From Psammoneis japonica (Eukaryota): DNA of 64,000 nt. The notes beneath the pieces are model-generated. The model made no database searches, was not told where the DNA came from, and worked only from the letters and a program-made list of their open reading frames with translations. This document shows positions 5,371 through 45,640 of the stretch, piece by piece (within the stretch, counting starts at the first letter, position 1; each line of letters opens with the position of its first letter). The stretch covers positions 372,001-436,000 of the forward strand of contig QPGO01000037.1 in the NCBI GenBank assembly GCA_008632985.1. Direction: 5' to 3'. The translations under genes and the position numbers were made by a program.

Positions 5371-5394
5371 AAATGAGGGAAGATGAGAAGGGGC

Positions 5395-12939: not shown

Positions 12940-13101
12940 GATGGTCATTCAGGGCAATATGTATGTGGACAGAGGTTTCTGTCACAAGTCATCAGGGCAT
13001 AAGTCTTCTTTCCCGCGCTTTTCACTGTTTCACATCCACATGCCCCCTTTTATTCTGCCAAGTCGTCGGGAGCCTTTTCGTTGTGAATACACCTCGACAC
13101 C

Positions 13102-16200: not shown

Positions 16201-16311
16201 TTGCTACTCACATAGTTAAAATTCGGCTAGTTGAACTCTTTGATTGGCAATTGCGCCAAAAAGCTATTTTACAATACTACACAGCATTGCTAGCAAAATG
16301 CGTTGGAAAGT

Positions 16312-19664: not shown

Positions 19665-19694
19665 TAGATATCATTGAGTAGGTTACGTTAGCGT

Positions 19695-23603: not shown

Positions 23604-24302
23604 TTACCTGCCCTCGTCTTCAATGTCAACATCAATAATCGTGCCCTGTCTTCGTCGCTCATCCTGCCGCTTTTGTTCAGCGGATGTTGGGTTTCTACTA
23701 GCACCCCACGAATCATCAAAGAATCCACCCATAAAGGGATCGGTTTCTTCAAAGATGGATCTGCTCGTACGACCTCCAGATGAGACGGCCTCGATTCCCG
23801 TCTTGTCGGCGGATGCCTGCACCACCGTCCCACAATTCAAGCAAATGCTGGGCGACGAGTCCTTGAGAACACGAAGCGGCGCAGAGCAGTTTGGACATGG
23901 TCCCTGGATTGTATTGAAAAATTGCCAACCCTGAAATCCAGCCCAAAGAACTACCGGCGTTATAAAGGCCAAGGCGAGAAAGGAATTAACGATTGCAAAC
24001 ACGAATCCTCCAAGTGGCGAGGCGAAAAAGGCAATCACCAAGGCAACACCCAGTACGCTCGATAGCAGTCCTTTCAAATCATTGTTCCGTCCTCCACCGC
24101 CTCCAGGGGGTAAATTGTACATGTAACGACTGACGGTCTTTTGACTGTGCGACTGTCCACGGCGCATTAGCGGTGGCGGGCTAAAGAAAAGCTTGGCCCG
24201 AGGAGCAACAGACGGATGCGTATTGACACGCACTGTTGGATGGACAGTGAATCCAGAGACTGCGGCAACAACCAGGAGCACACATAAAAGTAAGCTCTTC
24301 AT
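23604..24302 (-). CDS. Plastid-targeted membrane protein with a CxxC...CxxC zinc ribbon
   Basis: Presequence MKSLLLCVLLVVAAVSG|F, two hydrophobic helices, GPCPNC...ICLNCG and a C-terminal TIIDVD. Confidence 0.8.
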   Translation of the reverse strand: MKSLLLCVLLVVAAVSGFTVHPTVRVNTHPSVAPRAKLFFSPPPLMRRGQSHSQKTVSRYMYNLPPGGGGGRNNDLKGLLSSVLGVALVIAFFASPLGGFVFAIVNSFLALAFITPVVLWAGFQGWQFFNTIQGPCPNCSAPLRVLKDSSPSICLNCGTVVQASADKTGIEAVSSGGRTSRSIFEETDPFMGGFFDDSWGASRNPTSAEQKRQDERRRQGTIIDVDIEDEGR

Positions 24303-24710
24303 TTTAGGCTGTGGTCTTCTCGAATAAGAGGGGTCGGTTGTTGGTGTGGTAGTAGGGTAAAGGTATGATGTTGTTGTTAGTGTCAGGTAGCTGGTGTTGG
24401 GTGTCAAGTTGCATTCAGCATGTTGGGATGTTGTGTTGGTCGTGGGCCTTTGGTCGTTGGTCGTCGTTTGAAGTTGGCGGCAAAAAGATGGGAGAGAAAA
24501 TTGAAGAAGCCTCCACGTGTAACTAGGACCCACTTTATATACATTCCTGTATGCATGTATATAATCCATCTTTGCTTGTGCATTGAAAAATTATTGAACT
24601 TCAGCTTTGTTTAAAAAATATTAAATATGAAGGTATTCAAAATGCATATATCCATAAATTCGAAAAGAGAAAAACATTGAGAAGAGCGATCGAAAAAAGC
24701 GATTTTGACC

Positions 24711-25874
24711 ATGATGTCGTCGTCGGGTAAGTATCTCCCGCCTGTGCTGCCAAAAGCATCTGTCGCTAGTGCTGCGGCTTTGTATGCAGGCTCAAAAGTG
24801 AGTGCAGCTACGGAAAACACGGCAATAGAATCTGAGGCTGCAAGACAACGTAGACTTGAGGAAGAAGAAGCCGCCAGTCGACGATGGACAACGATTGTTG
24901 GCGGTGTAGGTTCCGCCGCAAGTGAGTAGGACAGTGTTTCGCTTTTTCGAAGCATGTTGTTGGTTATGGTTTGTCTTATACGTTTCCTTGCATCGTTCTG
25001 ACCTTAGTTATTACCGCTCTGGTGGCCATCTACATCGAGGCAAGCTTCATTGCAACCCTCGCGTTCCTGTTTCCGCTGGGTACGGCTCCTTACTGTATAC
25101 ACCAACGTCGCAAACTCAACAGGCTCCCAAGTAAGTTGCCTATAGGACCGCTATATCTATGCTCAATGCTTATGTACAGTACCCAGCTGATCAAAAATGA
25201 TTCCTTTACTTTTCTATGCTCAAGCCCTCAATCATGAAATCAATGAGATTCGAATGTATGCGAACCGCCTGTCAGCAGAAAATGATGTTCTGACGCAAAA
25301 TGTTGACTCGTTGCAAAGAGAGGTGTCTAGGTATGTGATTGATGGAGCTTTTACATTTTCAAAATCGCTGTAACTGCACTCTATTCTCACTCTAGTTTCT
25401 TGTGTTTGATGCTGCAACAGGCTGTCAGTGATGGACGATCAATTAGAACAACATGCTCAACGTCAAGGACGAGATGTAAACCAGCTTCGTCAATTGGTGA
25501 AAGAGAACGGTGAAATTATTCGCAAGCAAAAGGTAATTTTTTGACAGGTGTGTGAGTTAGTTGTACTGTCGAACAATCTTCAACTTAACTTGTGTATAAT
25601 TTGTTTGGAACAGAAATTGCAAGAAACAAAAGTCATGCAAAACCTCTTGACTGCCATTATAAAGAGTGACGGTGATTCGGACTTTCACATTAACGACGAC
25701 GAACTTGAAACGCTCATTTTACGAATGAAAAACATGCCTGGCGTCAAATTTGACGAAACCCGTCTTCGCAAACAGTTTCGTGCGAGCATGTCCAATTCTA
25801 TGGATACTCTTGCGCAGCTGACAAAGGAAGTGTTGGAGGCGGAGAAGCTTGAGTTGGCCAAGAACAACGAATAG
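24711..25874 (+). CDS. Multi-exon protein with TM hairpin, coiled coil and an EF-hand-like loop
   Basis: Several GTAAGT/GTATGT/GTAATT donors, hydrophobic VLTLVITALVAIYIEASFIATLAF, and a last exon containing KSDGDSDFHINDDEL. Confidence 0.65.
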
Positions 25875-26613
25875 TCGTGTAGCTATCCTAAACTGTAATG
25901 AATGTAAAGTGATCTTGTGCAGAGAGGTAGGGGCGGGGGGGAGAAGAGGAGCGATTTCATGCTGTTTTGTTCTGATGACGAAGTAGCATAGAGACGTGAT
26001 AAAGTTGTGGTAACGCTCAAAATGTCTTTTCGGTGTGGTTGGAAAGCTGAAGCTCGCAGCAACTACAAAGCTACACAACAACTTCATACAGGCACCGTAA
26101 CAGCCAATATCTAACCAACAGACGCGTCATTCTGATAGTGATAGAAGGCTCGTTCCCCATTGGGCGTTCAGAGTTTTGCGAATGATGATGATGATCTAAC
26201 GTCGATTGATGTTCAGTGGTTATCTTGTGCACATTTGGGTTGTGCCGATACAAGTATCATAGGTGCTTCTGACGTCTGTACAACTACCAAGTTTACGCGA
26301 TTCAGTCGACGTCTCGACTATGCAATAAATGATTCTACTCTAACTAGACAATTTTTATTATCTCAATTGATAGGTAGATCTTGGCTACTCGAACTACCGG
26401 TGACTACCACTCGTAGTTGCTAGCTTGCTGCTTTCTGTCTCTCTTGGTAGAGAGCTTTCGGTGTCTCAACTCTGAAGCTCTCTCTCTCTAAAGAGGTGGA
26501 CTAAGGTACCTCCAGTAGACTGTAGCTCTACCGTAGCACTCAGCGTGTGAGCAAATGGTTCTCTCTACTCTCTCGAGAGAATAGATCTTGATAGCATATA
26601 TAAATGCCATATG

Positions 26614-27590
26614 TTAAAACTCAATTCGCCGGAAAACAGCAGAAGACTGTCTGGGCCCATCTCCTAGGTTGCCCACCAAGTTCCAACCAGTGCCCCATAG
26701 AGAGCCATCTGTCTTGATAACCATGGAAAATGAACAGCCAGTTGCACAGAAGGCAACGTCAGACATGATCATCTCAAATTTTTGAACCCCGTCGACTGCA
26801 GTTCCGAGTCCAATGGGCCCACTTGCCCCAGCCCCCCACAACGTTCCATCCTTCTTTATCGCTGGAGTATGACGACCCCCTGCTGCGACTGAAACAACGT
26901 CAGTCAGGACATCCACTGGATCGAAAATGATGTTCGATCTCGTACCATCACCGATCTGACCACTGCCGTTGGCGCCCCAACCTGCCAGAGTTCCATCTGA
27001 TTTCACTGCCATGACCCTCGCACTCGATGTCACAACTGATGCAACAATCTCCAACAGCTTTGCCGGAGTTGACACCTCTGCTTGGTCTGGGTCCACCAGG
27101 AAAACGCCATATAGTTCATTTCTTCCCATGCCCAACAGAGTTCCATCTTTCTTCAGTATAAATGATGCTGAGTCGCCCGCAGCTACTGCGCCTACGTTTG
27201 ACATTAGCTTTTTGGGCACTTTCGCCTGCCATAGCGTCGCATCCGTTTTCACTGTTAATGCGTGGTATAAGTGCCAGCGGAAACGGCGGCAACATCACTC
27301 ATAATTTGAGTTGGTTTCAACCTCCTGATGTTGCTTCCATCACCGAGTTGATTGCTCACGTTCAAGCCCCAACCCCACAGGGTGCCATCCTTTGTGATTG
27401 CCATGTTGTGGGATTCACAAGCAGATGCTGATGTTGCGTTCGACATGACTTCCACTGGGGAAAGACGACTCTCCTCAGCTGTTCCGTCTCCCAAGTTCCC
27501 ATTGTCGTTGTTGCTGGCGCCACATAATTTCCCGTCAGACTGAAGAATCATGGAGCACCGATTGCCAATCGTGACTTGAACTGTTGTCAT
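26614..27590 (-). pseudogene. RCC1/BLIP-II repeat beta-propeller, intronless; frameshift near 27265; 5' part TpA-eroded
   Basis: Repeats of VxAGxxHxxAIKxDGTLWGWGxNxxGQLGDGT in ORFs 27255-27731 and 26614-27252. Confidence 0.88.
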
Positions 27591-28329
27591 CCGCTCTCCT
27601 TTCTTCTTCTGTCTTGACAAACCAGCATCGGCGAAACGCATTGAGGTTCTAGCTCTTGCATCAATGAATGCTTTCAAGGTGACCAAAAAACAACTGCAGC
27701 AGCCAGCAAAAGAACAAAAGATGCACCACAATCAACTTCATTGTTTCATTGTTGGCCTGCTGACATGCTTTTGTCATTGCAATCTCAGCACAAAAAAAAA
27801 AGGGTGTTTTTCACTTGCCAAGACTTGCTCACACTTTCCCCCTCTCATTGTCATGAGAGTTGATTGTTGAATCAACAATTGCAATGGACCAAGAGTTGGT
27901 TTGTCACCATCATCGACACACCAAAAGATGTGATGCCTGGGATGTTCAGGAAATTTTGACGGGTTTTTGTGGCGTGCACTTTGCACCCACAGAACCTGTG
28001 CTGCCGCCACTCATGACAAATCAATGTCAATGTGTGAGCTTCATCAAAGGTGGTAACAGTGGTTTCCACTTTCCTTTGTAAATTTTTTAATGTGCGCTGT
28101 TAAAATTGTTAACAAGCAGAATTTAAAAAATGCCAGAAAAAGTGCTCAACAAATTGAAGCCCTTTTTTGCATTTCATCTGATGTCCCAATGCCTTTTCTT
28201 TCACAAGCTTCAATCAAATGCATGCAATGTTTAATTTAATTGGAATCAAAATCTGTTTTTTGTGATGCATGGTTTGGTTTCCTTTGGATCTTGATCAATT
28301 TGAACTTGGTTTTGACTTTGTCCTCCTCA

Positions 28330-28760
28330 CTCATGTGCATGTGTCTTCGCACTTGTGCAGTCTGCAGCACTTCACGCACACACGTGACCCACCACTTCTC
28401 TTCATGTTTCCCAGATTTGCACAGCCCGTTGGTCTGCGGCGTCTTCAGTGTGTGTTTTACATGCACAATTTTCCACACATTTCACAACAGCACACCCTCT
28501 CCCCAAAGTTTGAAAAACGAGAGCGTGCGCTGTTGTGATTGACGTGGATCCTGCGTGTGGTTGCAAATCTGCAAATCGACAACCGGCCATGGTGGTGAAA
28601 GACTTCACCCCATTGGCCAATGACAGCAGCTCAACATGCGGTGACACCTGCCATCCTTCTGGTTGGTCAAGATGGGGTTTTATTTGGGCACAGCTTGAAT
28701 CATGTGATCTCAAGTGTGCTGTCATGAATCTGCCACATCCAGAATGCTGAGCTGCTGGCG
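28330..28760 (-). pseudogene. Possible AlkB-like 2OG-Fe(II) dioxygenase relic
   Basis: FMTAHLRSHDSSCAQIKPHLDQPEGWQVSPHVELLSL aligns without gaps to the AlkB F..Y..I..HxD...P.I..LSL block. In another frame, KHTL and WWVTCVR (R-x5-R after reverting TGG to CGG) follow. Confidence 0.4.
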
Positions 28761-28869
28761 TGTTGTTGTGTGTTGTGTGCACGCATGTCACAAACTTGCT
28801 TTTCTGCAGTGTTGTCATAATCGCGCATGTCAGAGTTTTGCATCCAGAATCATCATGAGCCACCATGAA

Positions 28870-29152
28870 TTGCGCTGTTCAAACAAGGCATGTGCAAAAA
28901 GAGGTGCATTGGTTTTTGATGCATTCGCTGACAACACATCCATCTTCTCCAATTTCCACATCCAGATCCAGAAAGACTCCAGGCGGTGCTTGTTCCTGCA
29001 GCTCTCAGAATCACACACATGAGGAGTTCTTTGCCACACACAACACTCTTCAAAAAAGGCATGCACAAAAAGAGAGCTTCACTTGTTTTTGATGTGTTCA
29101 CTTGCGTTGCATCCATCTTCTCCAATTTCTGTGTCCAGATCCAGAAAGACTG
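28870..29152. repeat. Direct duplication of a block of about 105 bp
   Basis: ...aaggcatg[tg/ca]caaaaagag...gatg[ca/tg]ttc...catccatcttctccaatttc[caca/tgtg]tccagatccagaaagact occurs twice. Confidence 0.85.
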
Positions 29153-29299
29153 CAGAGGCAGAGAGAGGGGAGGCAACCCATTGGAGATTGCCTGAGTTGT
29201 TGGGCTCATTTTTAAAGGCTTCCCAAGTCTCTCCACTGTTTGTGGTCAAGAGCAGGGGGGGTCGACTACAACAACTGCAGCAGCTGCCAATTCCATGTC

Positions 29300-30135
29300 G
29301 ATGGGTTGGGAACCAGAAGCAGAAGCTTCTGAACTGGCAGTGGTGGATGCACCTGCAAGCCCACGTTGCAGTTTCAATTGGTTGCTGTTGTTGTCCTGCA
29401 CTTTCTCACAAAGCATTTTACATTTCTTTGCAATGAACAAGGTGGGTCAGAGCAATGTTGCTTCACATGGTCCGGAATCAGCTTCGCAGGGTCGGGAACC
29501 GGTGGCAGAAGCAACCAAATCTGCCAAGGCAGATGCACTGGCAAGTCTGCATTGCGGCTTCAATTAGTTGCTGTTGTTGTCCTGTGCACTCTCACAAAGC
29601 ATTTTGCACTTCTTTACAATGAACAAGGTGGATCAGAGCAGTGTCACTTCACATGGTCCAGAATCAGCTTCGTGGGGTCGGGAACCAGCAGCAGAACCAA
29701 CCAAATCTGCCGCGGCAGATGCACCAGTGAGTCTACATTGCGGTTTCAATTGGCTGCTGTTGTTGTCCCGTGCACTCTCACAAAGTGTTTTGTGCTTCTT
29801 TGCAACAAACAAGGTGGATCAGAGCAGTGTTGCTTCACCTGGTCCAGAATCAGCAGCATCGATGCACTGGCATGTCCATGTTGCCATTCCTCTGGGTTGT
29901 GTTGGTTCATCTGTGCAATGCTCTCACAATGTGTTTTGCTCGTTTTGGCAATGAATGGAGTGAAACAGAGCAGCGGCACTTCAAACAACAAAACGACAGC
30001 TCAGCGGCACTGGGTGCACTGGCAAGTCCATGTTGCCTTTCCTGTTGGTGGTGTTGGTTCATCCACACTGTGCTCTCACAACGCATTCTGCACTTTTTTG
30101 GCAATGAACAAGGTGGCTGCAAGCAGCGGCACTTG
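29300..30135 (+). repeat. 186-bp tandem repeat (3 copies plus 2 shorter diverged copies), each an exon-plus-intron module
   Basis: Anchors at 29355/29541/29727 and 29431/29617/29803. Each unit has a donor-like site, a ctcac branch-like motif, a pyrimidine tract and AG, then VDQSSVTSHGPESAS..EPAAEPTKSAAADAP. Confidence 0.8.
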
Positions 30136-31269
30136 ATGAAAGTGAGCTGCAACTGCTGCTGCAGACTCCAGGGTGTTGTTTCCGTCGGCGTCATTCAATT
30201 TAAATGTGGACAACAAAGTGGAATGTTCATGGTGCAGTGCAAATGATTTTAATTCACAGGTTTTGCAGGGATGGAGGGTGGGCACTCTCACAGGGAAAAC
30301 ATGCCCCTGTTTCTCAGTGAAAAACATTTTTTCTCATGGAGAGGGGGGTCTGATCCCACAGCACAAAAATGTTGATCTGTCACAGTTGACATGTCATTGC
30401 CAGCTGCACAACTGACAAGGTTTGAAACTGTAAAAAAATCATCCACAAAAGGAACAAAAATCACAATGAAAAGATGTGTGATGATCACTGCATTGCGTGC
30501 TCTGATGTTGTTGCCAAAGAATGACAGAATGCTTCAAAAGAGCAACAAATGTTCATTTTCCATTGCACCACCAACTTTGTAGCATCAACAGGCCACTGGG
30601 CATGGCAGATGAGGCAGAGTTGAGAGGCTCATCATTGAGTCATCTTTCAGGCTGCATGGTTGCTGGTGTGGGTGGCAATGACATGCCATGGCCAGAAGCA
30701 GGTTTTGTGCATGTGGCCATGATGGAAGCCAAGGAAGAGGAGGCAGTGGTGACAGTGATGCAAGACATGGCTGAGTTGATGGTCACAATGTCACCAGCAT
30801 GGATGCTCAGAGAGAAGTTGTCAAATGTCCTGGCAGATGGCAGATTGAGATGACCGCAACAGCACAGTCATGGTGAATGACAAAAACTGCATCACCACTC
30901 CACCTGAGATGCACACCACTGCCAAGCTTTTTCTTTGTGCCAGTGCTCTTTTGTGAGATGCACAGCAAGAAAAATGTTTTTGACAACCATGATGAACAGC
31001 TCCTTGACTTGCAGGGGACAATGCAGCACTTTTTGCAAACAAGCAGAAGCAGGGCTCTTGAGGGAGCACACACAAAGTTGGAAACAAATGAACAGATGCT
31101 GCACTTGTCAGCTCAAAAACAACAGCCCATGAAGCAACTGTGGCTCAGCAACAAAACAGCAGCAACACAGAAACAAAGGAACACAGAGAGTCAAAGCAAG
31201 CAATGGCTGCACATGCCTTGAGCGATTGTTGCAAAGCAGCATTGCAGCCCATGTTTATCCTGAGTCCCA

Positions 31270-32120
31270 ACCACCAGCATTGTTGATTGTTGCATTTCAA
31301 CATGTGCAAAAGGAGAAGCAGCAACTGTCAAGATGTGCAGAGCAGCAAGTCTGAGACACCACAGAAGCAATGGGAAGAGAGAGAGAGTCAAAAAAATTGC
31401 CACTCATGCCTTGAGTGTTGTGAAGTGGCACCACCATCATCATGCCATCCTGATCACCAGCATTTTTTGTTGTTAAATTTTAACCATGCAAAGGAAAAGT
31501 GGCAAATCTCAAGAGATGGAGCAGCAAATCTAAGACACAATGGAGACAAAGGGAACAGAGAGAGTCAGAGCAATGCTCGATCACACCTTTGGCACCATTT
31601 TGAAGTGGCATTGCTGTTGTCACCCCATTTGATGCCATCTTTGATGTTGGCCCAAATGATGCATTGTGCAACACCTGAGCCACACAAGAGGAGAAATGGC
31701 AAGTCTTGGAAACCACAAAAATGAAGGGAACTGAGAGAATTAAAGCAACAGCATGCACATCTTGAGTGTCACAAAGTGGCAACCTCCAGTGTTTTTGATT
31801 GTTGCATTTCAACATGATGAATCGCACAGCACATGAACCATGAAAGAGCAGAAATGGCAAGTCTTGGAAGCCACAGAAATGAAGGAAATGAAGAGAATTA
31901 AAGCAATGGCTGCAGTGTTGCAGTTGCACATGTTCATCCCAACCATCAGCCAGCATTTCTGATTATTTCATTTAAACATGGTGAACAGAGCAGCACCTGA
32001 ACCAGGCAGAAAAAAAGCTGGCAAAGCTCAAAACCACAGAAATGAAGGGTGGGGAGAGAGCAAAAAACCGGCTGCACACATCCCTTGTGCTGGAACTTGT
32101 TGAGCACAGACATGAAAGCA
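31270..32120. repeat. Degenerate tandem repeat, about 5 copies of roughly 160-200 bp
   Basis: The motifs aaatggcaagtcttggaa.ccaca.aaatgaagg..agagaattaaagcaa and gattgttgcatttcaacatg recur. Confidence 0.7.
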
Positions 32121-35100
32121 TTGTGAAGAGCAGTGCAGCCATTGCCACATTTGTTCTTTGACAAAAACTGGCCCATTTTGAGCTGTTCAGCACCTGAATG
32201 CTTGGAAAGAATGGCGTTGCTGCAAATGCCTGAAGAAGCCATTGAGAACTTGAACATTGCACACAGTGGCACCACTGTCATCACTCATTGTGGTGGCCTT
32301 GCCTTGCAATGAGCTCTGTGTCCAAACAGAAGATGCAAACTCAAACACAACATGTGCAAACAGTTGTCACCTGAAATGTGCAAAAAAGAAAAAAGCACAG
32401 AAATGCTGCACATGGAAAAGGTGCATTTTTGCTTGCCTGGTGTGCTGTGCTGACTCTGTTGCTGCACTGTGTTTTGCTGTCATCAGCATTTGAAGTGTGT
32501 GCCACCTGCACTGCCAGAATGACTTGCAAGAACCATGGCACATCGATGGTGGACATGGGTGATTGACTTGTGACACATTGAAGCAGCCAGGCTTGTGTTT
32601 GCATTGACAGATGCTGCCAGAATCACATTGTGGCATTGACTTGGATGCAAAGCAGTGCTGTTGAGTGTTGAGTGATTTGATGTTGTTTGTCAGCTCTCTG
32701 GTGCTCATCCTGCTGAATTCTGCACAGACAAAAACCAGGCATCACACCCCGGTGCTTCACACATTCCTTCCAGAGCTGAAGCAAACCCCTCAGTGGAAAG
32801 CTGGGGGCTCCCTGAAAAGTGTTTGGCAAAGAACAGGTTGTGCACAACTTTTGTGCAGTGATCAACAAATGCTGCATTGTTGCAGCCCAGCACCACAAAT
32901 CCACATGGCAGACCTGGGGCACACACTGGCAGCAGGCTCCCCAAACTGAAAAGGGCGCTTGCCTTTTGCCATGGCATGGTCAAGCCCATCAGGTTGTCAA
33001 CACCAAATTGCAAGCTGAGCTGGCAGTTTCTTGCTTTGGCCATGCAGCTCAGCCAGTTGGTGCAAAAAACTTTTCACTCAGAGTGGGCTCTTAGAAGACT
33101 CTCCTCTGTGAGCTGACAGCAGAAGCCAGCAGCACACAAACACAGCACACAAAAGTGTGCACTGCTTTTTTGTCATTTCAGGTTGCAGTGTGCTGTTGAG
33201 CCTGTTGCAAATTGTGATAACTTGGCTTTGTTGCAATGACGTCCCATGCATGCTGCTGCATTCTCCCAGTGCTGGCTGTCATTTGAAACTCAAGTCGCTG
33301 AAGTGACAGATGGGCAAGTGAAAAAGCACCTGTCTTTGATGCATGGGGTGAAACAAAACTCAGCAGCTGAGCTTCACATGCACACACTGCTAAATGAACA
33401 ACCCAAAGCAAGGCTTGAAAGCAACAATGCAGTCAAACAAAATGACTCTTGCATGAAAAATGAGTTTGTTTGCAAGCTCAAAATGAGAAAAGTGCCAGAG
33501 TCAAAAAAGCAATGAAGAGGCAACCTGACAACATGTGTGCAGCGGGGGGGGGAGGGGGCATCTGTTCTCATGCGTGTGCACTGCCTGAAGCAGCCAAAAG
33601 TGAGCGCAGCTGAGCAAACCATGGTGGTGGGATCTGAGGCTGCAAGACAACACAAATTTGAGAAAGAACAAGTCAAGAGCCAGCAGCTGGTGGAGCCCTT
33701 TGGTGCGATGCTTCTCTTTGTGGGATGAGACATGGAACACAGGTCCAACTGTGTGCATCAGAGTGATCTTTCAGGACATTGCAGTGGGTTGGAAGGCTGC
33801 CATGATTGGAGCCAACAACCAAGCTGGCACATCTCTGCTCAAGATGGAACACAGAAAGAGCAGCAGTGGTGAGACAATGATGCCATGGTGGAAAAAGATG
33901 ACAATGTTTTCCCAACATGCCTGCTGTGTTGGAAGTGCTTCATTTGGCAGTCAAGTGCTGAACAAAACCATGGATGGCAAATTTTCAACTGTCTCTGAAC
34001 CATCATCTCTCCTGTGGCCAGCTTTGCTCTGTGCAGCATCTGGACACACCAGCAGAGTGGAAAAGTCTTTGAGAGGAAGGCAGGCAAAGAACATCAACAT
34101 TGACAGTTTTGCATTCTTCCGGTGCTCTTGCTTTGCAACTGCCTTTTCAATCACTCTTTTTGGATCTGCGTTTGAGTCTCTTGCCTGATCTGTCATGGTC
34201 TCCAAGTGATGGGCAAGTCTCAGTGCTGCCAACATGTGAAAAAGCATGCTCAAGCTCCACTTTCTGCATCTGCCTCAGCAACATCTGCCTGTGCTGCAAT
34301 GAATCAAGCCAGTTGTGTTGATGTGAGCATTTGAAAAATGCTCAGCAAGGCAGTGACTTCTGTCTGTGCAGCACATGAATCACAGAAGGCTTGGACACCT
34401 GCTTGTGAACCTGAAGCAAGGCTCTGTTCCCTCACCCATTTCTGTTTGAGCCTGACTCAGTTGTCACCACTCCTGACATCACAAGTGGTGCCATCAAGTC
34501 CAAGAAATCATCTGCACAAAGTCAAAAGACAGGTGTTTGAGTGATTTTTTTTGTGCTCTTTTTCTGTCTCTGCTCTTTGCTCCTCTGAACATTGCCAGTG
34601 TTGCCACATTCTCCAGGTGTGAGCTCCCTGTTCCATCACTCTTTTGTGCTCCAACAGCAAGTGGGCAATCTCAGCCTTGTTGATCAGCAAGATGCAAAAT
34701 TTGTGTCAGATGTCTGAGCCATCTGAAAAATTCAAATGGAGAAAAAGCAACTCCAATGATGTCTTGCAATCCTGTTGCTTCTTGTCTTTTTATCATGCCC
34801 TTGAAATTAACCAAGTTGCCTTGAGCACACTTGTCTGCAAGCAAACCCCCAAGAAAGAGAGTTTTTTTACAGTGCAGTGCAGCCATGGCTGTCTCCATCT
34901 GGAAGGCACCATTGCAAAACAGGAAACAAATCTGTTTGGCTTTGGCAATTTGACAACCATTGACAAGCTCAAGGCTCATGAGATCAGATGTCCAACCCAA
35001 GTCATTGAACCAGTTGTTTTTCCAATGCTGTTGCATTTTTTGTGTGTGCTCCATCATGGGTGCATCTGTTTTTTGTTGTTTCCCCCTTTTCAATGTGCAG

Positions 35101-38100
35101 CCCATCCATGGTTAATTCTGTTTGTGTTCCTTTGCAAATTGTTGCTGTCTGCAGCTGATCTCTGTCATCTTCTGGCATTCCTTCTTCTCTGGTGTCCATG
35201 CACTCCCAGATTCCTTTGACCAAACTTCATTGCACTTGTTGGTGTCCTTGGCTCAATCTTTGCTTGGGAGTGCATTTCCAACTCTTGGTGTGCCTCTCCA
35301 GCCCTTGCTTGTTCCAACCATGATTCCTTCTTGCTTGCTTTCCTTTTCCCATGCTTCACTTTGCATCAGGAATGAGCCCCTCCTCTCTGTCTTCCTTCAC
35401 CTCTTCCTTTGCTTTGCTGTGCATTTGAGCCCACTTGTTCCAGTTGTTCTCCAACACAAGCATGCTGAATGTCTCATTGGCTGCAAACACCAGCTTGTTT
35501 GAGCAACTGTTCTGTTTGTGAACCCATGCTTCCACATCATCTTCTCTGCCACAATTGGCAGAAATTGGCAGGTGAAATGGCTTTGGGCACAACTTTGTTC
35601 CTTCCCTCTGGCATTTCCTCTGGAGATGTCATCTTGTTGTTTTCTGCTTGTGGGCTCATCTTGTCATGATCCATCATCCACCCTGAGCACACACAACACA
35701 CAAAGCACCAGTTGTCAGCTCTTTTCCAGCTCTCAGTCTGCAGCACACTCCATTTGTCACTTGCAGAAGAATTCTTTCTTCAGTTCCCTGATTGCATTGT
35801 TCCTCTTTCTTGTCATTTGCCTTCACACCTTCTTGTTTGACATGCATCCCAGATTCTCACTCTCTTCTCTTGTGGCAAACTGAGCTCAAACACAACTGTT
35901 GTTGTGACCCTTCCATCATCTTAAGGTCCTTTTATTCAGAAACTTGCACTGCCAAAACAGTGCATTGTTGCAGCAGCTCTCCCAAACAATCTTGTCCCTG
36001 TTGCTCACCTCATCATTGCATTGCTTTTTCTTTCATTTCTTAGTTGCAATGTCATCTTGTTCTTCCATTGCAGATGCAGAGAGAGCCCACCCATGACAGC
36101 TGATTTGCCATTTTGTTGTGTCGCTGTTGACACCAATGTGCTGTTCTGCAGCAGAGCCAGCAGCTCTTGCCCCTGCCATGCCCACCACAAGCCACAATTT
36201 TGGGGAGTCAAGCCAATTGCTGTGCACCTCACATTGACAATGTTGGTCACCTCATGTCATTGTGGGTTTGGGTGCGGCCCACTTGCTGTCACTTGGCTTG
36301 GCATGGTGTTGTGTGCGTTTTGACTTTTTTGCAAAAAAGTGTGATTCATTCACGGATGCATGCCTTGCACCTGCTGTTTCAATGCATTTCTGCATTTGTT
36401 CTCTTTGTTTGAACATCTGGTGAAATTTCTCATTGGCACAAAATTTTGCAACATCACCTGATTGTCTGCTGATGATGATGCACACATTCATTGCACATGC
36501 ACTCCAAGCTTTCAATTGTCTGCCCTTCCATCACACCATGGGTGGTCTCTGCCAAAAAGACTGTGCTGTGTCAGCACAAGCAACAAACACCCCACAGTGC
36601 ACCAGCATGCATCTTTTGTGCTGTCCACCTCCTCAAGACTCTCACAGACCTTTTCTGACCTTGGCAGGCCTTTCCTTGTGGAGAGTTGTGTGCAGCCACT
36701 TAAGCTGACATTCTTTGAGGGGCTTGTCTTTTTGGTTTGGTGCTGTGACAACACAGTGCTTCTTCCCACATGTGTTTTCATCTGACATCAACAGATGATG
36801 ATTTCACTCTTCAATGTCTTTGGTGTCTTGTTTTGCCAAGATTGCATGCTTGGTGGGGGCCTTTTTCTTGTTGACCAACCACTTGCAGATGTGGCCTCCA
36901 CGTTGTTTGTAAAATTTTGTCACACCTGTCTGGGATCCATGATCATGCTGTGCAGCAGCATCAAGTCTGCACAATCCTTTCTTTTCATGTGGGGGGTGCA
37001 ACTGGTGTTTCTGGCTCCATCCCTTTTTTGGTTTCTGTGGATGGATGCATGATTGTGTTGTTTGGCAATGCATTGAGAAAGTCCAGCTGATGATTTTGTA
37101 ACCACTCTTTCCTGCTCCATCCTCCCTTTTGTTTGTTTCCACTTGCGCACCTTCAGTTTCCTTTTGGTGCTTTCCAGTCAGTTCTCTCTCTCTGCATGTC
37201 TTGTCAGCAGGGGCAACTCCTTCATTGAACATGTCTCTTCATTCCTCAGGCAGGTTTGGATCAATTTCATCCAGAACACCCACAGAGGACAGCCAGAAGA
37301 AGTCAACCAAGTTGGCTTTGTTTGCTTTCCCAGCTGAAGCAGCGGAGTCTTTGACATTTGTGTTGTTTTGGTTGTCTGCAACTGCACTGTTTGTGTCTTT
37401 GCTGTGTCAAAAAAATCAATGGAGAGTTTGCTGCTGTCCATGAAGAGCTCAACTGATGTCGACGCTGTCCGGCAGAGCTCTTCTCTTCAATGTGAGTGAC
37501 ACCTTGGACTCACAGCCTGTGCACAGTGAGGAGTCCACACCATCCAGCTTAAGTTGCTGATGTGGTGCACCTCATGTGCAAACATGCATGGGCAAGTTTT
37601 GTCACCCACCCAAAGATTCTCTCACTGTGACAAGCCACCATGACATCCTCACCTCTCACAATGACAATGCACACTTTTTCACAATGAATTCTGGGGGTTG
37701 TGCCTCCCAGCAAGTTTGCTCTGAAGTGTCACCTCAATCACTGCAATGCAGCAATCAATGCATCAAGTGCTGCTTTGGAAGAATCTTCTGCTCCTCCTCC
37801 TGTGAGGTGTGTTGAGCCAGGCATTGCCTCAAAAAATGGAAACAAGAATGACAAATTCTTTCTTGACATCACCTTCATGGAGGACCGCTGCTCAATGGAT
37901 GTCAATGAAGAGGGTGATGGTGCAAACACTTCTCAGTTGATGTGCAACAACAACAAAATTGCAGGATGTCAGCTTTCCTTCCAACATGGTTTCTTGCCAT
38001 CAGAGCTGGAGCTTTGTTGCTCCAGAAGGATTGTGTTGAACAAAAGAGGCCAAGACAAACCAGCAATTCTTCTCATTCCACCAGACGAGTGGCAACCAGG

Positions 38101-41100
38101 TCCAAGTGGAATGTCGTCCATGTGTTCTCTGGAGAAGACTCCAATGGTGACTCACAAAGCACTTTGATGCCCCACATGAACTTCTCCTCTCCCTTCTGAC
38201 AATGTGCTGCAGAGGAGGACAGTGTCAATGAAGAAGGTTGGTCTCTGCCACTGTTCTCTGAAGCAATGCATGACATGGCATTTTTTGCCACCCAACAGCT
38301 CAGACCATGTGGTGTGGTCCCCACCTCAAATGGAGAACAAAACGGTGAGCAAATTGAAAGATGCATCAAACCCATTGCATGGTGCAATCCAAGCAACATG
38401 GATTGACTTTGTCAACCCAGAAAGACTTGCTGCAAACAACTGGGCACAGCTGATGGAAATGTCATTGTGCTTTCATGCATGGACAGAGAGGCAAGATGGC
38501 TTCTGGAGCACCAATGACAAAACAGAATGGGAGCTCAGGCAGCAGGCAAAGGCATCTGAATCCATTGCTGTCATGATGCAAGGCATTCTGGTGTGCCCCC
38601 TCAAATCAAAGTTGCCCAAAAGACAGGAACATTGAAGTTTCATCAAGGCAATGGGTGGGATCTTCAAAAAAAGAATTGGGTCTGGGTCACAAGTCCAAAA
38701 ATGCCTTTCATGGTTTGCAACCCAGACAGAAAAAAACTCACAAGGCAAGATGCTTGCCACAGCCACCAGGTCATCTTTTGGCTTCTGCTTGATGGCAGAG
38801 AATGCAAACAAAAATGACAAAGGCAGTGGCACAAAGTTCTGACTCATTTTCCTGGAGCCCATGCACTCCGTGTTGTGTGAGTGTCATGTGTGAACATCAG
38901 GGGGATGCTGAGACTTGGGCACATGCAAAACAGGAATGGCTCTCCAAAACGGGGACTTGCTTGAGCTTCCAGGAGCAGTGGTGACAAAGTGTCATGCAGC
39001 AGAGTGCTGTGAGAATGCATTGCTCTGCCTTGAGTTGTGCACAGTCAGAGCAACCAAGAGACAGACATTGAAGTTGTTGGGCAAGGAAGTCTGGGCTCAT
39101 CCAAGGTGCCAGTCTGGTGAGTCACAGTTGTCAAGGCAGAGAGCATCAGATTTTGGGGATGGCTGTGGGCTTTTTGTTGAACACAGGTGGAGAAAAGACT
39201 GGGTGAGCCCCTCACCTCGAAGCACCAGTGCAGCTGTCTTCTCTGGAGAGACACCAACAAGTTCAAGTCAACCATCTGAGAACAACATGCAGAGAGGCAC
39301 ACACAGCAGATGGCAATCCCATGTTTGATTTTGTTGAGGCATCCTTGACAAAAAAGAAGATTCTTGTGTTTGAAAATCACGGCCCAACTCTCAGGGATGA
39401 GAAGCCAAGATGGGGCATCAAAACACAGCAACAGACTGGAAACCCCGACTGAATTGTTGAGCAGGGTCCCCCCAAGCTGCACCAGGAGGGCATCAAGTCA
39501 AGATTGTGCGCACTTGGAGAACACAAGAAGACACAGCCATTGAGAGACAAGCAATGGCACAAGACTGGGCACATGAAGTGTGCAAATGTGCAGTTTGGAT
39601 GGAGCTGTTCACAGATGCTCATGTCCTCAGAGAGCAGCACAAGCAATGGATGAATGTCAGGGAGTGCAACACTGACAAGCAAAACTTCAGTTTTCAATGT
39701 GGAGTTGTGCAAATGCACCTGGACAAATCTAAAAACAGAAGGACAGCCCAGCTGCCCAGAATGGAGAAGTTTGTGCTCTGCCTGATGAAAGCAACATTGA
39801 AGCCACACCTGTTGGGACCTCCAATGGTTGACATAGAGCAAAGACAAGCTGGTGGTCTCTTCCTCTCCTGAGGTTGTTGAGCTTTGTGCAAAAAAGATTG
39901 TTGAGTTGACCAGCGCGCCAGCCATTTCCCTGTTTTTCAGAGGAGCATGCCTTTTCAAATCAACAATGGAAGTGCATTCTCCACCAGAAGGAACAGTCTG
40001 ACAAAGGCCACCTTTCACCTCAGTCACTTTTCCAATGTGTCTTGGGTTGGCAGAAATGACTTCAATGAAAGAGCCTTTTGTGACAAACAGGTTTTGACCT
40101 TGACAAACTGTGTCAAAGCAGCAACTGTCTGAGTCAGTTTTGCACTGGATGCAGCGCACCCCTTGCAGATGCAGTTTTTGCCACCATGGCAAGTGACAAT
40201 TTCTTCTGTTCTGTTTGCAAGTGTGGCACAGATGTTTTTCATTGCATTTTCAACAGTGTGATTGATTGTCTTTTTGGAGTGCAGACTTTCAGGAAGCATC
40301 TGAAGCATCCATTCCATCGTTGCCTTTGTGTTCTTGGCAATGATGCCTGCAAGATTGATGAAGCAGAAAGGCAAAAATTCAATGGCCAAGATCACCACCC
40401 CCCCACCAAATCTTGACTGGAAAGAACAAGAACATCACACATCTGGAAACACTGATTGTGCCATTCCTTGCATGGTGGCAGGACAAATGGACAATGCTGA
40501 GAGAGCATGATGCGATGTCAGCAGCTTTCTCTTCTCTTGACAAAATTTTGCATCAGTTTTCACAATGGTTGGTCCAACCAAGCAACTCAGATGTAAATCC
40601 CTGAGAGATGATGGGGACTCAAGTGGTTGTGCTGCTGCAATGCTGCTGTGCATGCCACCACAAAACCGTGTGGCTGGGAACGTGCAATTCCCCAGGCACA
40701 GAGCAGGAAAACAGCAGGAAGGAAGAAAGGAAAGACAGGGAGCACACATGGATCAACTCATCCATGGCACCAACTGACAAAAGAAGGTGCCCAAACAGAT
40801 CAAGGCTGCACTTCATCTTGATTGCTTCATGCTGAGGGATGCATTCATCAGCCATTGCACTGCTTCTGACATGATCCAAACCAATGAGCTTGCAAGACTC
40901 TGGCAAAAAGCTTCAAGCATCCCAAACGGCATCTGCGCATGGTGAGTGAATGCTTTCCAATGACACCTGCAGATCATGTTTGCTTTGCATGTGACCTGTG
41001 GTGGCTGTCCATTGCAGCATTTCAACATCACTGACAGCTTCTTGAATCAGCAAGATGACGGATGTTGTTTTGATTTCTTGTGAGGCACTGTTGCACTTGT

Positions 41101-42437
41101 TGAAGTGGCAGCCCAGAAGATTGTCAATGTCAGTGTTGGCAACATGTGGCAAAGGAACACAACAGTCAGGAAAGACAGTTGGGTTGTTGTGGTCCATCAA
41201 AAAAATTCTGGAAGAAAACCAAAAAACATCCTGAACTCACTTGGCGCAGTCAGAAACTCTGAAAAATGCAAAAAGCACAAGAAGATCATCCACTGGTGGC
41301 ACACATGACCAATGGGCACCCCATCACAGGAATTTTTACTTCCTGTGCATTGAGTGGAAGTGCTGCCACAATCCTTGTGCATGCCCAGGAGCAGCTGACA
41401 CTTGGTGCCGGCAAAGGAAGAAGAATCTTTGTCACACTCTAAATCAAGCAACATGTCTCATCTGTTTTGCATGCACCAGCATTTGAGCTCAACTTGTCAT
41501 GGAAGGGTTGCCCAATGGAAAAACGAAAAACCTGCATGGACCCCCCCTCTCCTCATCTCTGAAGTCAAGCTGCGCCAGCAGCACCAACTCCATGATGATT
41601 GTGTGTCAATGGATTGGGGCTGGGCTCTTGTGGGCTTTGTTGCACAAGACAACTTCCAGCTTGCTGTTTGACAATCTTTGGAACAACAACTCATGGCTCC
41701 ACATCTTGAACAAACTGGAAGAGATGAATGAAAGTGTGCGCGAGGCAGCGATTGGCTCGTGGTGTCCTTGTCTGTTTTTGCGGCATGCTGGCATTTGGGC
41801 TCAACTTGTCATCAACAGTTTGTGCAGCCTCAAGGAAAAAAAACAAGAACACCAGGATGGGTAAATGGATGATGATCACTGTGCCAGCACCCCAATCCTC
41901 TGGGTGTTCCAACCACTGTCTTCGCAGAGTGACGGCTTCTGCCATCACCTTGGTGTTGTGAGCAGGTGCAGCACACCAATGGCACCTTTTCCCCCTTGGC
42001 AGTCTTTCCATCCCGTTTCTCTTGCTCTTTTTTCCCTTCTTGATGTTGACCAGTGAATGAAATTCAAAATGGGCACAGCATCTATCTTGCCTGACGGCAA
42101 GTGTGGAGGTGTCCAAATCGGCACAAGAAGGTCGCCCGAAAAGATTTTTTGGAATTACATCACAACATTGCCCCTATGACGTGTTTTGTGTCATTCAGAA
42201 AACAACGATTTACGTTTAAGGGAATTCCGAACTCATAACGGTCGCAAACGCATTTCCATTAAGTAAAACAAGAGTACACTCATGCCGTTGCATTGCGTGC
42301 GTCGATGCAATCAAAGAATTCCGACATGCATGCGTGCCGGTACGGTAGGAACTTTTTTTAGCGAGCGCGTGCCGATGGAATGTGCCATCATTTTTCTCTC
42401 ACTTTTTTCCTTTTTCATTTCCCACGACCAAGTTCAC

Positions 42438-44613
42438 ATGGTTGGTCGTCCCGTTGTTGTTCTCTTAGCAACGCTTGCCGCTGTTGATGGGCACCAGTTT
42501 CTCCCAGCTGGTGTCACATGCAGCTCCCAGTTCTTCTCGCCGGAGACGGCGCTAACCATCCCAAACCCGGAAGTTTCGTGGGCGAGCTTTCGCATTTTCA
42601 CATGTGGTACGTATTACGTAAATCGGGCAATTGCGTGACTTGAACGAATTAGTATTTCCTCTTTCCTAATACAAGATGACCTTTTTTGCAATCGATATAG
42701 ATGAACCTATCTTTTGGCTCGAGGCTCAAGCGGTTTACGCCGATCAGCCACTCGCGTTTACCGTATCTGTTCCCGTTATTGAACGATTCGAAGATTTGCG
42801 TCTTTCCGTAGCATTCATGGGCCCGTCGCTTCCCGCCCTACCCGATGATTTGGACGTACCCGAAGAAGTTAGATCCTATAGTGCAAATACGGGTTCAGGC
42901 GCCGTGCTCTTTACGTCGCCCGAAGATCAGACTTCATGTGATCATCTAACTGCCGAGTTGATGATTGAGCACAGTATTGTTGAAGGTGATCGATGCGTTT
43001 TTCATGAGTATTTCAGTGACAATAGTCAGTGGGTTCTCATTGATGATACAATCAAGGCTCCCGAGGTGAGTATAAACAGCACAAAATGCCGAAACGTAAT
43101 GAATTGTTGAATCAAGGCGCGCTTACCTTTATTCATCATGCGCTTGTTCTCCACAGCCTGGACTATACAAGATCGCAGTGTTTACAGAGGGGGGCGAAAC
43201 GGGTAAGGCTACATTTGCATGCTGCGATTTTCCTGAAGATTTTGTAACCCCATACGATATTCCCGAGCCCGAGTGTCCCTTCTGCGGTACATCACAAGAA
43301 GAGAACCCTGCGTGGCTGTCGCATTTCTTCGAGCAGAAGTCAATGGAAGAGTATGCTGGTTTTCCGCAAGCCACCCGCTGCGAAAATCCCAATTCATTCA
43401 ATATCGAGCCTGCGGTTGGTCAGTGCCCCCCTGAATCTGAAGAACCCATCGAAAATCAGCCCGCCAGCTGTGTCTTGGGTTGTGGTGCAAACGGTGAATG
43501 CCACAGCCACAATGTCTTTGGCGAGTGTACACACGCCCTTGAATGGGATCTAGTGCCAAAGTTCGGAGAGGCCACAGTATCCCGTGTTGTTATCTTCAAA
43601 GGTGACAAGATCCGGTTTAAATCCGATTCTGTACATAATCTCTTTGAAATGGCAAATGAACCATTCTTGAATGCGTGCGACTTCACTGACGCGACGGCGC
43701 TTGCCAATACGGAGGAAACAGTAGTTGGTCACACGATTACGTTCGACCAAGCAGGCACATTTTATTTTACATGCAGTATCGGTTGTGTGGATGCTACGGG
43801 CCTTCCCGTAATACAGACAGAAGTAGCTAGGGAAAGGACGTCCGACTCAGAGTTGTGCCATTGCAACATCAGCCAACGCCTCACGGTCGAGGTTAAGGAC
43901 AGCTCAGAAGGTCTCCGGTGCCACGATCACGCTCAAGAAGAAACAGAAGAGAAGACGAGTCCATCTCTGACGTGTCCTGAGGGACAGTTTTCTGCATTCC
44001 TCATCGACAGTCCAGATTACGGGGCGATGGATGCGACCGAATGCGCAGAATTCTGTAGCGTAGAGATCGCCTTGCAGTTCATGGAAGGTGCTGCGCGTGG
44101 TGCTTGTGCTAACAGTGGCTACACACACAGCCCTGTGAAGAAGCAAGTAATGGTCCCAGGCGCTCCTGTGTCTCTGGATGTCATCGTCGCATCCAATGTG
44201 GAACCTTCGACGTGCCACTGTCACTCGTATGAGGAGATTGCTTGTCCCGAAAATGAGGCACCCGATGACACCCTGTACGACGAGCACATTCAGAGATTGA
44301 AGAGTTTTGTACGGGTATCTTGGACGGATCAGAGGACAACTGTCCTTACAGATGCTTCCAGCCTATGGAAGTGCTCCACCTGCACTACCTTGAGTGCGAA
44401 TCTCGAGAAGTCGATGCCACCTACCTGGCCGTCAATGCGACGCAGAAATGCCACATTGCCGCGAGAGCTCCACCTGGTGCAGATTGCCCTGTTGTCACTC
44501 TCGGACGGGACTCGGGTAGCGTTGTCCTTGGAGAAAACTCTGGCGCCGTGCACCGTAATGCGTGGTCGGTCTTAGGCTTGATGTCGTTGATCGTGACTCT
44601 CGTTTGCTCGTAA
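42438..44613 (+). CDS. Secreted or surface Cys/His-rich protein with a cupredoxin (plastocyanin-like) domain; 2 introns and a frameshift near 44295
   Basis: Signal peptide ending AVDG|H, cupredoxin pattern FKGDKIRF..VHNLFEM...CDF...ITFDQAGTFYFTCSI...HC..QRLTVEV, motifs CHSH, CHDH and CHCHS, and a hydrophobic C-terminus. Confidence 0.75.
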
Positions 44614-45640
44614 TATTGTACATTGTCAAAGTTTTTGTTGAATACTCCTTTACTCGTAATCTTGTAAATTGTTATAGTTCTTTCTTGAAATGATATGTTA
44701 CCTACACTCTATCTAACTAGCCTTGTAGTGAAAATCAGGTTCTATCCAGAATTTGGTACTTCTATCTTGCTCCTACAGAAATCTCCTTTGCTTTGATGAC
44801 AATCAGAGTTTTTGGATTTGTTCCTTGTCTCAAGGAGAAATGCGCAGGCTCCGGTGCAGGTTTCTCCACGACACGCGAGTGTCTCAAGGACAGTGCACTA
44901 CTTTTTCAAACAAGAAACAAAATCCACACTTGTTCGCAAACTGACGGTGTGGATAGAAAGGGGGTGGGGGGAAAGCAAGTGGGGGGATTTCGAAGGTGCA
45001 ACGTGCAACACCACTAACTATCCTTGTTTAGGGCCCTCTAGTGCTCTCACTCTCTAAGGTGCTCTCTAGACTTTTGTGAGCTCGCTTTCCTGTGCTCGCT
45101 GTATCGACAGCGATCTTTCAACGATATATTATATATTTTATTTATATTACCGAATAACAGTATTTTCGTTCTTTTTTGCCTCACAATTTTCTTTTGCGTT
45201 AGGCCACAATTTCACGAAGGTCGCCGCAAAAGGTTCTACATTGTTCAGCCTTTTTCATCAGCCGTGATCCAAAGCTTTGGCCATCTGCAAAAAGTGAGTG
45301 TGATGATTATTCATTGAATTGCTTGTTCGCTCAACAATCGTGGCCGTTGTGTCACTGTTGGTCATCGTGCGGTCAATCGCTGAAAATTCGCCGATGGTTC
45401 TTTTATGCAGAAAGCCGTTAACGTCCCGAACACTAAATATTTCCAAAAAATCCTGGCGAACGCGTTCCATCTCCCCGCGTCGTGTTCAATGCCGTTTGCG
45501 CTTTCGCTTTTGCATTTTTTCGGCAAGAGGTTTTTCCTGACAGTTTTCGACCGCACAACGCAACAACAATGGTTCTCTCTCTCTGCGGGGCATATTGACA
45601 GTCCCTATCATTAGTTTGTTCATCTAGCTCACCCATCATC

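Follow-up and report, generated by a model that had tools for sequence, protein, structure and literature searches.

The 64,000-nucleotide window analyzed here (positions 372,001 to 436,000 of the forward strand of contig QPGO01000037.1, assembly GCA_008632985.1, from the diatom Psammoneis japonica; coordinates below count from its first letter) contains a gene-free stretch of chromosome of 14.8 kb, at 27303-42083, in which the dinucleotides TA and CG have almost disappeared and TG and CA are strongly enriched. We consider it highly probable that this island consists of old DNA, repeat or foreign, that was silenced and has reached the end state of two processes acting on it in place. The first would be a fast, domain-confined mutator that turns TpA into TpG or CpA through A:T to G:C transitions, and the second would be the slower, ordinary deamination of methylated CpG to TpG or CpA. 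As both would yield the same products, TG and CA have nearly doubled and the G+C content is still 47%. From the pattern of change described below we infer that the agent of the first process is an enzyme attacking one base of the TpA step, that it is guided by chromatin, and that it serves genome defence.

Composition was measured across the whole window in sliding 1-kb windows and with dinucleotide tables. Between 27301 and 42100 we counted 53 TA (observed/expected ratio, o/e, 0.05), 127 CG (0.16), 1686 TG (1.82) and 1697 CA (1.85), and the depletion is deepest in a core at 30401-41300, which has 27 TA (0.03), 49 CG (0.08), 1259 TG (1.88) and 1268 CA (1.85). The left flank (13001-27000) holds 570 TA (0.59), 765 CG (0.98), 982 TG (1.13) and 1014 CA (1.16), and the right flank (42101-64000) 831 TA (0.57), 1292 CG (1.01), 1540 TG (1.11) and 1513 CA (1.13); pooled, the flanks have a TA o/e of 0.58 and a CG o/e of 1.0. 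The G+C content does not change (0.468 in the island versus 0.47-0.49 in the flanks). AA, AT and TT are without depletion, AA having an o/e of 1.23-1.25 in the island and 1.17-1.22 in the flanks, and TC is likewise not depleted (0.98-1.00).

Both edges are sharp. On the left, 15 TA fall in the 500 nt ending at 27302 and 2 in the following 500 nt; on the right, 2 TA lie in 41600-42100 and 13 in 42156-42553. The island starts inside a reading frame that encodes RCC1 repeats and ends about 180 nt short of the next open reading frames (ORFs). CG is kept at 27.3-30.2 kb, where its o/e declines from 0.61 to 0.32, and to a lesser degree at 41-42.1 kb (0.21), in zones where the TA o/e is already at most 0.2. 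In the window as a whole there are three TA-poor domains, at 1-2300 (a gypsy fragment), 5048-12939 (a copia element) and 27303-42083, and the host ORFs between them have a TA o/e of 0.5-0.8. A preliminary description made by eye had put about 50 TA in 28-42 kb between TA-richer flanks, with CG rare in a core of 30.4-41.3 kb and persisting near the edges where TA is gone. The counts bear out each of these points, and the loss of TA in the island exceeds that in the genic flanks. The island is a real feature of this sequence.

Several lines of evidence indicate that the TA and CG of the island were converted rather than avoided. At the densities of the flanks the island would contain another 525 TA and 722 CG, 1247 in all, and its surplus of TG and CA amounts to 1303; in the core, 975 TA and CG have been lost and 995 TG and CA gained. 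CpG decay covers about 58% of the TG/CA gain (722/1247) and none of the TA loss. The TG count equals the CA count (1686 versus 1697), so both strands have been affected alike. Within the island core, a stretch of about 100 bp (33595-33694, plus strand) is paralogous to 24793-24888 in the left flank. All three TAs of the flank paralogue read TG, TG and CA in the island copy, and 3 of its 5 CGs read TG or CA. A tandem array of ~186-bp units at 29303-30134, with 72-79% identity between units, provides a second internal comparison: the units differ by CA versus TG 49 times, and the other five double-transition classes that were seen occur 2-9 times each. Such an excess is expected from independent strand hits on an ancestral TA or CG.

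These observations bear directly on the view that the island is native in composition, either as foreign DNA or as a class of sequence in which TA and CG are avoided for functional reasons, and was never mutated. TA is indeed under-represented genome-wide, as the flank o/e of 0.58 illustrates, and there is no ancestor of the core at hand. However, the mass balance, the CA-versus-TG excess between tandem units and the presence of TA in the flank paralogue where the island has TG or CA all argue against native composition or selection, as do the TpA-only divergence of a pair of long terminal repeats (LTRs) and the replacement of conserved tyrosines described below. In addition, none of the frames scanned in the core is coding. 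We regard this view as largely refuted and give it very little credence.

The clearest record of the process comes from a complete Ty1/copia LTR retrotransposon at 5048-12939 on the minus strand, identified by its RVT_2 (E 2.8e-16) and Pol_BBD domains, 310-bp LTRs with TG..CA ends and a target-site duplication, GATGG. Its interior has a TA o/e of 0.13 and a CG o/e of 1.01. Comparison of the two LTRs revealed 10 differences in 310 bp, every one of them TA versus CA or TG and none elsewhere. The low LTR (5048-5357, minus strand) reads CA or TG at 7 of the TAs of the high LTR, and the high LTR (12630-12939, minus strand) reads CA at 3 of the TAs of the low LTR. On the plus strand the differences divide into 6 T/C and 4 A/G, and a single LTR contains both kinds. 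There are no differences at CpG, with 9 CpG per LTR. About 12% of LTR positions lie within a TA, and the chance of 10 out of 10 differences falling there is approximately 1e-9 (calculated by hand); expressed per base, 10 changes in about 84 TA bases versus 0 in about 536 others give a ratio above approximately 20 (95% bound on zero, by hand). As the LTRs of an element are in principle identical at integration and these are now TpA-diverged, the changes would have been made on resident DNA.

The LTR changes are also clustered: five fall in a stretch of 11 bp and three in one of 23 bp. The larger cluster is the TATATATATAC box, probably the TATA element of the LTR, in which five adjacent TAs are all converted at 5297-5307 and all intact at 12879-12889. 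Conversion of all five in one LTR suggests a burst-like, locally processive action. Clusters of this kind are also what error-prone patch repair would leave, if a polymerase-eta-like enzyme misinserted G opposite T at WA during repeated excision and resynthesis in methylated heterochromatin, comparable to the A:T phase of antibody somatic hypermutation. The errors of polymerase eta are A-to-G at WA, with TA preferred. However, AA is not depleted in the island, each of the ten changes in the LTRs is at TA and none is a transversion, and both strand types occur inside one 11-bp cluster. Moreover, clearing 98% of the susceptible TAs would need very many patches, and the collateral errors are not seen in the young copia element. 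We therefore consider patch repair improbable.

A different possibility is that the element was edited before integration, by an ADAR-like activity on retroelement RNA or by deamination of single-stranded cDNA, and that the TA-poor state was inherited. In its favor, the copia interior seems to have lost most of its TA before the insertion (TA o/e 0.54-0.69 in the LTRs versus 0.13 in the interior), and ADARs prefer a 5' U according to the Discussion of the preprint bioRxiv 10.64898/2026.01.13.699255. Editing of this kind does not readily account for LTRs that differ at TpA only, with T/C and A/G changes in the same LTR, for the equality of TG and CA in the island or for the unaffected AA, and the island domain holds an RCC1-like host-type ORF and no retroelement protein. 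We judge pre-integration editing very improbable. RNA hyper-editing of the ADAR type was also considered as a class for the island and rejected on similar grounds: the strands are symmetric, AA is intact and the two LTRs of one element differ.

To obtain a direction of change, we compared the reverse transcriptase (RT) of the copia element with its homologues. The copia RT contains 1.0% Tyr, 5.0% His and 3.3% Cys, whereas 32 homologues over the aligned columns contain 5.6%, 2.3% and 2.1%, respectively, and the Tyr content is 3.5-6.3% in all 49 RT homologues found. At the 10 columns where at least 70% of the homologues have Tyr, the copy in the window has Tyr at 3, one of them the YxDD tyrosine, His at 4, Cys at 1, Phe at 1 and Trp at 1. 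Other conserved residues have been kept (His 2/2, Cys 4/4, Asp 14/14, Gly 16/17). Since conversion of a TAY codon gives CAY or TGY, the expected replacements are exactly Tyr to His or Cys. Among the matches listed, the named relatives of this RT are from Fragilaria crotonensis; in metagenome contigs, 55 pattern matches were obtained and 0 were confirmed as relatives. The conversion of TA to TG or CA cannot create stop codons, and the long frames of the copia element, of 1892 and 482 codons, are for that reason uninformative on its activity. These two frames share one phase, and only a single TGA, at 7033-7035, stands between them; over its first ~1100 codons the longer one is low-complexity and has no Pfam match.

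We then asked which TAs survive. In the island, 47 of 53 survivors occur as TTAN or NTAA, compared with 541 of 1399 TAs in the flanks (Fisher p 1.5e-13), and the ten NTAN classes differ between island survivors and flank TAs with a chi-square p of 3e-24. TTAA represents 19/53 island survivors and 53/1399 flank TAs. When TAs were classed by their number of protected half-sites, a T before or an A after being counted as protected, those with none numbered 6 in the island and 858 in the flanks (relative density 0.017), those with one numbered 28 and 488 (0.139), and those with two, which are TTAA, numbered 19 and 53 (0.867). The core alone gave relative survival values of 0.008, 0.10 and 0.62 for 0, 1 and 2 protected half-sites. 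If the strands are hit independently and TAA is resistant, survival with one protected half-site should be the square root of 0.017, or 0.13, close to the observed 0.139. The bias extends further out: A occupies positions +1, +2 and +3 of survivor half-sites in 62%, 51% and 38% of cases, and in 21%, 28% and 28% in the flanks. The survivor pattern thus fits two independent strand targets of a putative motif 5'-T-A-B-3', where B is any base except A, and 9 of the 10 LTR changes follow this rule. The preliminary description had listed TTAA, TTTA and TAAA as the main contexts of survival, and the example strings it gave are all among the survivors. It had also proposed an enzyme-like flanking preference, a proposal strengthened by the graded survival and by the bias out to +2 and +3.

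Taken together, these data are consistent with a mutator that would attack either strand of the palindromic TA step independently, at 5'-T-A-B-3' (V-T-A if written for T), with a run of A after or of T before the step giving protection. The most likely chemistry would be enzymatic deamination of adenine in DNA to hypoxanthine, which is read as G. Targeting would be by domain and not strictly by repetition, as the signature ceases within about 100 nt at both edges and includes about 430 nt of the RCC1-like frame. The same process could instead attack the thymine of TpA, with TET/JBP-type oxidation to 5-hydroxymethyluracil or 5-formyluracil and mispairing of the formyl form with G, giving T-to-C. 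Because TA is palindromic, T-to-C on one strand is indistinguishable from A-to-G on the other, the motif is equally V-T-A, and nothing in the sequence separates the two chemistries. In dinoflagellate DNA, 5-hydroxymethyluracil is reported to favor TpA and TpC, and 5-formyluracil is mutagenic towards T-to-C. TC is, however, not depleted here, and the only worked-out published proposal, which concerns the alga discussed below, is an ADAT2-like adenosine deaminase, itself a proposal in the main text of that report. Attack on thymine is, in our view, rather unlikely. Two other sources of change were considered and rejected. Eukaryotic N6-methyladenine sits at ApT, and the AT o/e of 0.80-0.82 in the island versus 0.87-0.90 in the flanks indicates that ApT is not the target, so decay driven by this base does not apply. 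Biased gene conversion is not dinucleotide-specific, and the G+C content is unchanged.

As TA and CG are the dinucleotides most likely to carry modifications, we examined whether a long-read base-caller could have misread modified bases in heterochromatin, calling 5-methylcytosine as T and modified T as C. A public DNA run (X1) contains 62% of sampled words from 25001-35000, and its reads yield contigs that extend over all 30 bins of 25501-43500, at a depth of about 30-60. A 1049-nt contig over the left edge (26565-27613) has 0 differences from the assembly, and contigs in the core have 3 differences in 943 nt (32967-33909) and 1 in 806 nt (34277-35082). Exact 31-mer contigs at a depth of approximately 30-55 argue against long-read miscalls of modified bases, and an artefact of this kind has next to no chance of being correct. 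Next to nothing of the stretch was present in two further runs (X2 and X3), and the listing showed no RNA run containing it.

The three TA-poor domains can be arranged by apparent age. The o/e values for TA and CG are 0.15 and 0.98 in the copia element (5001-12000), 0.07 and 0.47 in the gypsy fragment (1-2000) and 0.03 and 0.08 in the island core, a series that would follow from TA loss reaching saturation well ahead of CpG decay. The gypsy fragment (1-2300, plus strand) is of the Ty3/gypsy type, with an RT_RNaseH domain and a 42-bp tandem array, and represents an intermediate stage. The 42-bp repeat itself, at 281-856, appears as ten overlapping 198-nt registers spaced 42 nt, and lies inside an open frame at 3-1349 upstream of the RT_RNaseH fragment at 1472-2074. 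The preliminary description had held that TA loss extends beyond or precedes CpG decay. Precedence is supported by the 10 TpA and 0 CpG changes of the LTRs, by the copia interior, and by the island edges that are free of TA and retain CG. The part that needs qualification is the left edge: its CG-keeping zone coincides with a high-copy repeat and may be younger DNA rather than evidence of spreading.

This high-copy repeat occupies 27900-30900, where the summed contig depth is 1398-6252, the CG o/e 0.15-0.47 and the TA o/e 0.06-0.14. In 18 bins of 30.9-41.7 kb the summed depth is 52-284, with 14 of them at 52-122, compared with 53-64 in bins that are clearly flanking. The depth profile indicates that the left part of the island is a high-copy repeat and that the core is low-copy at at least 80% identity. 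Among the relatives aligned, 694 transitions were counted versus 295 transversions. Shorter tandem arrays are found at 28875-29155 and 31163-32048; like the island, its core, the high-copy repeat and the ~186-bp array, they are assigned no strand. The core is old, with its CpG decayed too, and contains no recognizable protein family. Its AT and GC skews reverse together at approximately 34 and 38 kb, and it is therefore likely to be a patchwork of fragments lying in opposite orientations.

The left edge of the island is straddled by two ORFs with RCC1 repeats (26617-27731, minus strand), matched by RCC1/WD40_RLD with E values of 3e-30 (outer ORF) and 8e-20 (inner ORF). The 5' ORF, at 27258-27731, is almost entirely within the TA-poor domain and has retained its CG. 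Only 2 TA occur in 27303-27731 compared with about 17 expected (p approximately 1e-5, by hand), and the TA-poor domain therefore enters a host-type RCC1-like ORF by about 430 nt. The RCC1-like frame is broken at ~27270-27290, within about 20 nt of the left edge, and the motif AG..H.L.VK.D..LW resumes in another frame. A read-derived contig confirms the break, which must then be a real frameshift or mark a dead gene fragment.

Several points weigh against our reading of the island as the product of two processes in place. The evidence consists of sequence as it stands in the assembly and the reads. The RCC1-like piece could be the remnant of a dead gene and part of the island, and not a spread into a host gene. 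The yardstick for the context rule is genic flank DNA and not ancestral island sequence. One of the 10 LTR differences (GATAAT versus GATGAT) is an A/G change in a TAA context, contrary to the rule, and single LTR differences are not polarisable without an outgroup. No Tyr-poor member was found among the 49 RT homologues, which come from other diatoms and metagenomes, and run X1 may be the assembly's own sample, in which case it confirms the reads and not the strain. The copia element presents a further difficulty. The TA o/e of its LTRs is well above that of its interior, and the TA survivors of the interior show no context bias (0.16, 0.17, 0.19). The LTR pair shares 9 TAs and has lost 10 in one copy, so that loss per TA since insertion is approximately 0.36; either most of the interior loss is older than this insertion, or the interior was hit harder. 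Survival in the interior would fit selection, for example on Tyr codons, rather than enzyme preference. It is a possibility that the copia lineage has been cycling under this pressure, keeping its cis-acting LTR sequence and a few indispensable tyrosines.

The closest known system is the TpA-specific hypermutation of integrated virophage DNA and DNA of nucleocytoplasmic large DNA viruses (NCLDV) in the chlorarachniophyte Bigelowiella natans (Mettrop et al., bioRxiv 10.64898/2026.01.13.699255). According to the main text of that preprint, mutation-accumulation lines gained 231 mutations in two integrated viral regions, of which 230 were A-to-G or T-to-C, all of these on TpA. The process acted on DNA and in a single-copy region, with a rate of about 6e-7 per site per generation. 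The mutations arose as new ones in culture lines, approximately 1000-fold over background, and an ADAT2-like deaminase was put forward as a proposal only. By the thresholds of the preprint (rho TpA at most 0.43, together with rho CpA+TpG at least 1.52 in at least 3 consecutive 1-kb windows; bioRxiv 10.64898/2026.01.13.699255), 15/15 of the 1-kb windows of 27001-42000 qualify.

The likeness to B. natans, as far as the preprint's main text describes it, is close. In both, A:T to G:C changes occur only at TpA, giving TpG or CpA by strand: all ten LTR differences are T/C or A/G at TpA, the tyrosine replacements include His four times and Cys once, and TG and CA are equally frequent in the island. 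In both, the process acts on resident DNA including single-copy sequence, here suggested by an LTR pair presumably diverged since integration, by inclusion of the RCC1-like ORF and by the low-copy core. It is confined to foreign regions or regions like transposable elements; two of our three TA-poor domains carry retroelements. The long-term signature, low TpA combined with high CpA+TpG in clusters of 1-kb windows, is also shared. The differences begin with the host, a rhizarian on one side and a diatom (stramenopile) on a different supergroup branch on the other. The targets in B. natans are viral, whereas those in the diatom are LTR retrotransposons and unidentifiable repeat DNA, and the NCLDV region has a TA value of 0.45 whereas the diatom island is saturated at an o/e of 0.03-0.05. 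The sparing of TTAA and TAA is resolved in the diatom, on which CpG decay is also superimposed; the main text of the preprint mentions neither a flanking rule nor CpG. Finally, B. natans offers proof from mutation accumulation, whereas the diatom case is known from what stands in the assembly. A literature search brought up the B. natans preprint as its only case and found no report of TpA hypermutation in a diatom, most subscription journals lying outside the search. The kind of process itself was described in April 2026, and what appears to be new here is a second major lineage, the candidate target motif, the in-place LTR evidence and the saturated end state.

Repeat-induced point mutation (RIP) of ascomycete fungi changes C to T mainly at CpA, creates TpA, lowers the G+C content, makes stop codons and needs duplicated sequence. 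Like the process proposed here, it is a regional, DNA-level transition hypermutation with a dinucleotide preference that cripples transposons, spills over into neighboring unique sequence and produces an island of distinct composition. Fungal RIP as such was rejected for this island, where the TA o/e is 0.05, CA is enriched and G+C is unchanged. The diatom island destroys TpA, and the process would be a functional analogue of RIP with the opposite chemistry. In addition, most of the diatom core is low-copy at at least 80% identity, whereas RIP needs duplication, and conversion of TA to TG or CA makes no stops, the copia frames of 1892 and 482 codons having remained. Methyl-CpG decay in the silenced transposons of plants, vertebrates and diatoms resembles the slower process in its products, TG and CA, in the core CG o/e of 0.08 accompanied by a TG/CA excess, and in the grading of CG with apparent age (copia 1.0, gypsy 0.47, core 0.08), methylation of the core being predicted from this pattern. 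Unlike the faster process, it gives no account of the TA loss. The substrates of ADAR and APOBEC enzymes are RNA or single-stranded cDNA; these enzymes are strand-asymmetric, with signatures at AA, TC or CC. Their editing in animals is likewise a deaminase-type transition hypermutation with a neighbor preference, directed against selfish nucleic acids, but the diatom changes are on both strands of integrated DNA and at TpA only.

A broader reading, which we put forward tentatively and hold to be somewhat less likely true than false, is that diatoms and chlorarachniophytes share an old genome defence that would edit double-stranded chromosomal DNA at 5'-T-A-B-3' in silenced domains. It would act in bursts that clear neighboring TAs and, creating no stops, would leave deceptively open frames. 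The pressure would be strong enough that transposon lineages evolve under it, losing coding TAs except in indispensable Tyr codons such as that of YxDD and keeping their TA-rich cis-acting LTR promoters. If this shared defence exists, the age of silenced DNA in these algae would be readable from two clocks, the ratio of TA to TG+CA running fast and CpG decay running slowly. A TpA-only DNA mutator has so far been reported in one rhizarian alga; a diatom signature would show that it is no curiosity of a single lineage, and shared occurrence would narrow the search for the enzyme to genes common to diatoms and chlorarachniophytes. The difference spectrum of LTR pairs is a simple sequence-only assay that can be used on any assembly, and the flanking rule, with TAA spared and strands independent, is a biochemical prediction for any candidate deaminase or dioxygenase. 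For annotation, a long open frame in an element of this type should not be read as evidence of activity, and Tyr-poor, His/Cys-rich 'proteins' should be taken as a warning flag. A natural TpA-specific editor of adenine (or thymine) on double-stranded DNA would also interest base-editing research.

A Pfam scan of 67 ORFs of at least 90 amino acids returned only the two RCC1 ORFs of the left edge above cut-off and nothing for the 65 others; hits to Meg, DPRP, DNA_pol_D_N, DUF7415, Saposin and zf-MYND were all below the Pfam cut-offs and were rejected. A Pfam scan of 12 frames with X at stops found 0 families at E up to 0.1 in the plus frames of 30001-34502, both strands of 34501-42104 and the minus frames of 27751-34502, the plus frames of 27751-30000 being covered by the ORF scan only. 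The longest core ORF (39380-40249, minus strand, 290 amino acids) had 1 match among 1.84 billion representatives, with an E value of 3.6e-7, to a tandem-repeat protein and uninformative. Comparison of the island at the DNA level with the copia and gypsy elements of the window detected no similarity.

Outside the island, ORFs with a DnaJ domain lie on either side of it, at 18648-19661 and 45599-46855, both on the plus strand. The first has 576 relatives at E values of at most 1e-10; among the 120 matches listed, all named organisms are diatoms, including Asterionellopsis, Fistulifera, Cylindrotheca, Mayamaea and Epithemia. Identity reaches 57% at best, which points to a diatom with no proteins of its own in the database. 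Further to the right, an ORF at 56185-58446 on the minus strand encodes 754 amino acids with two SAP domains and has no His and no Cys. The DNA in which it lies has a GC skew of -0.32 and an AT o/e of 0.55, and the product is a host protein of strongly biased, probably repetitive sequence.

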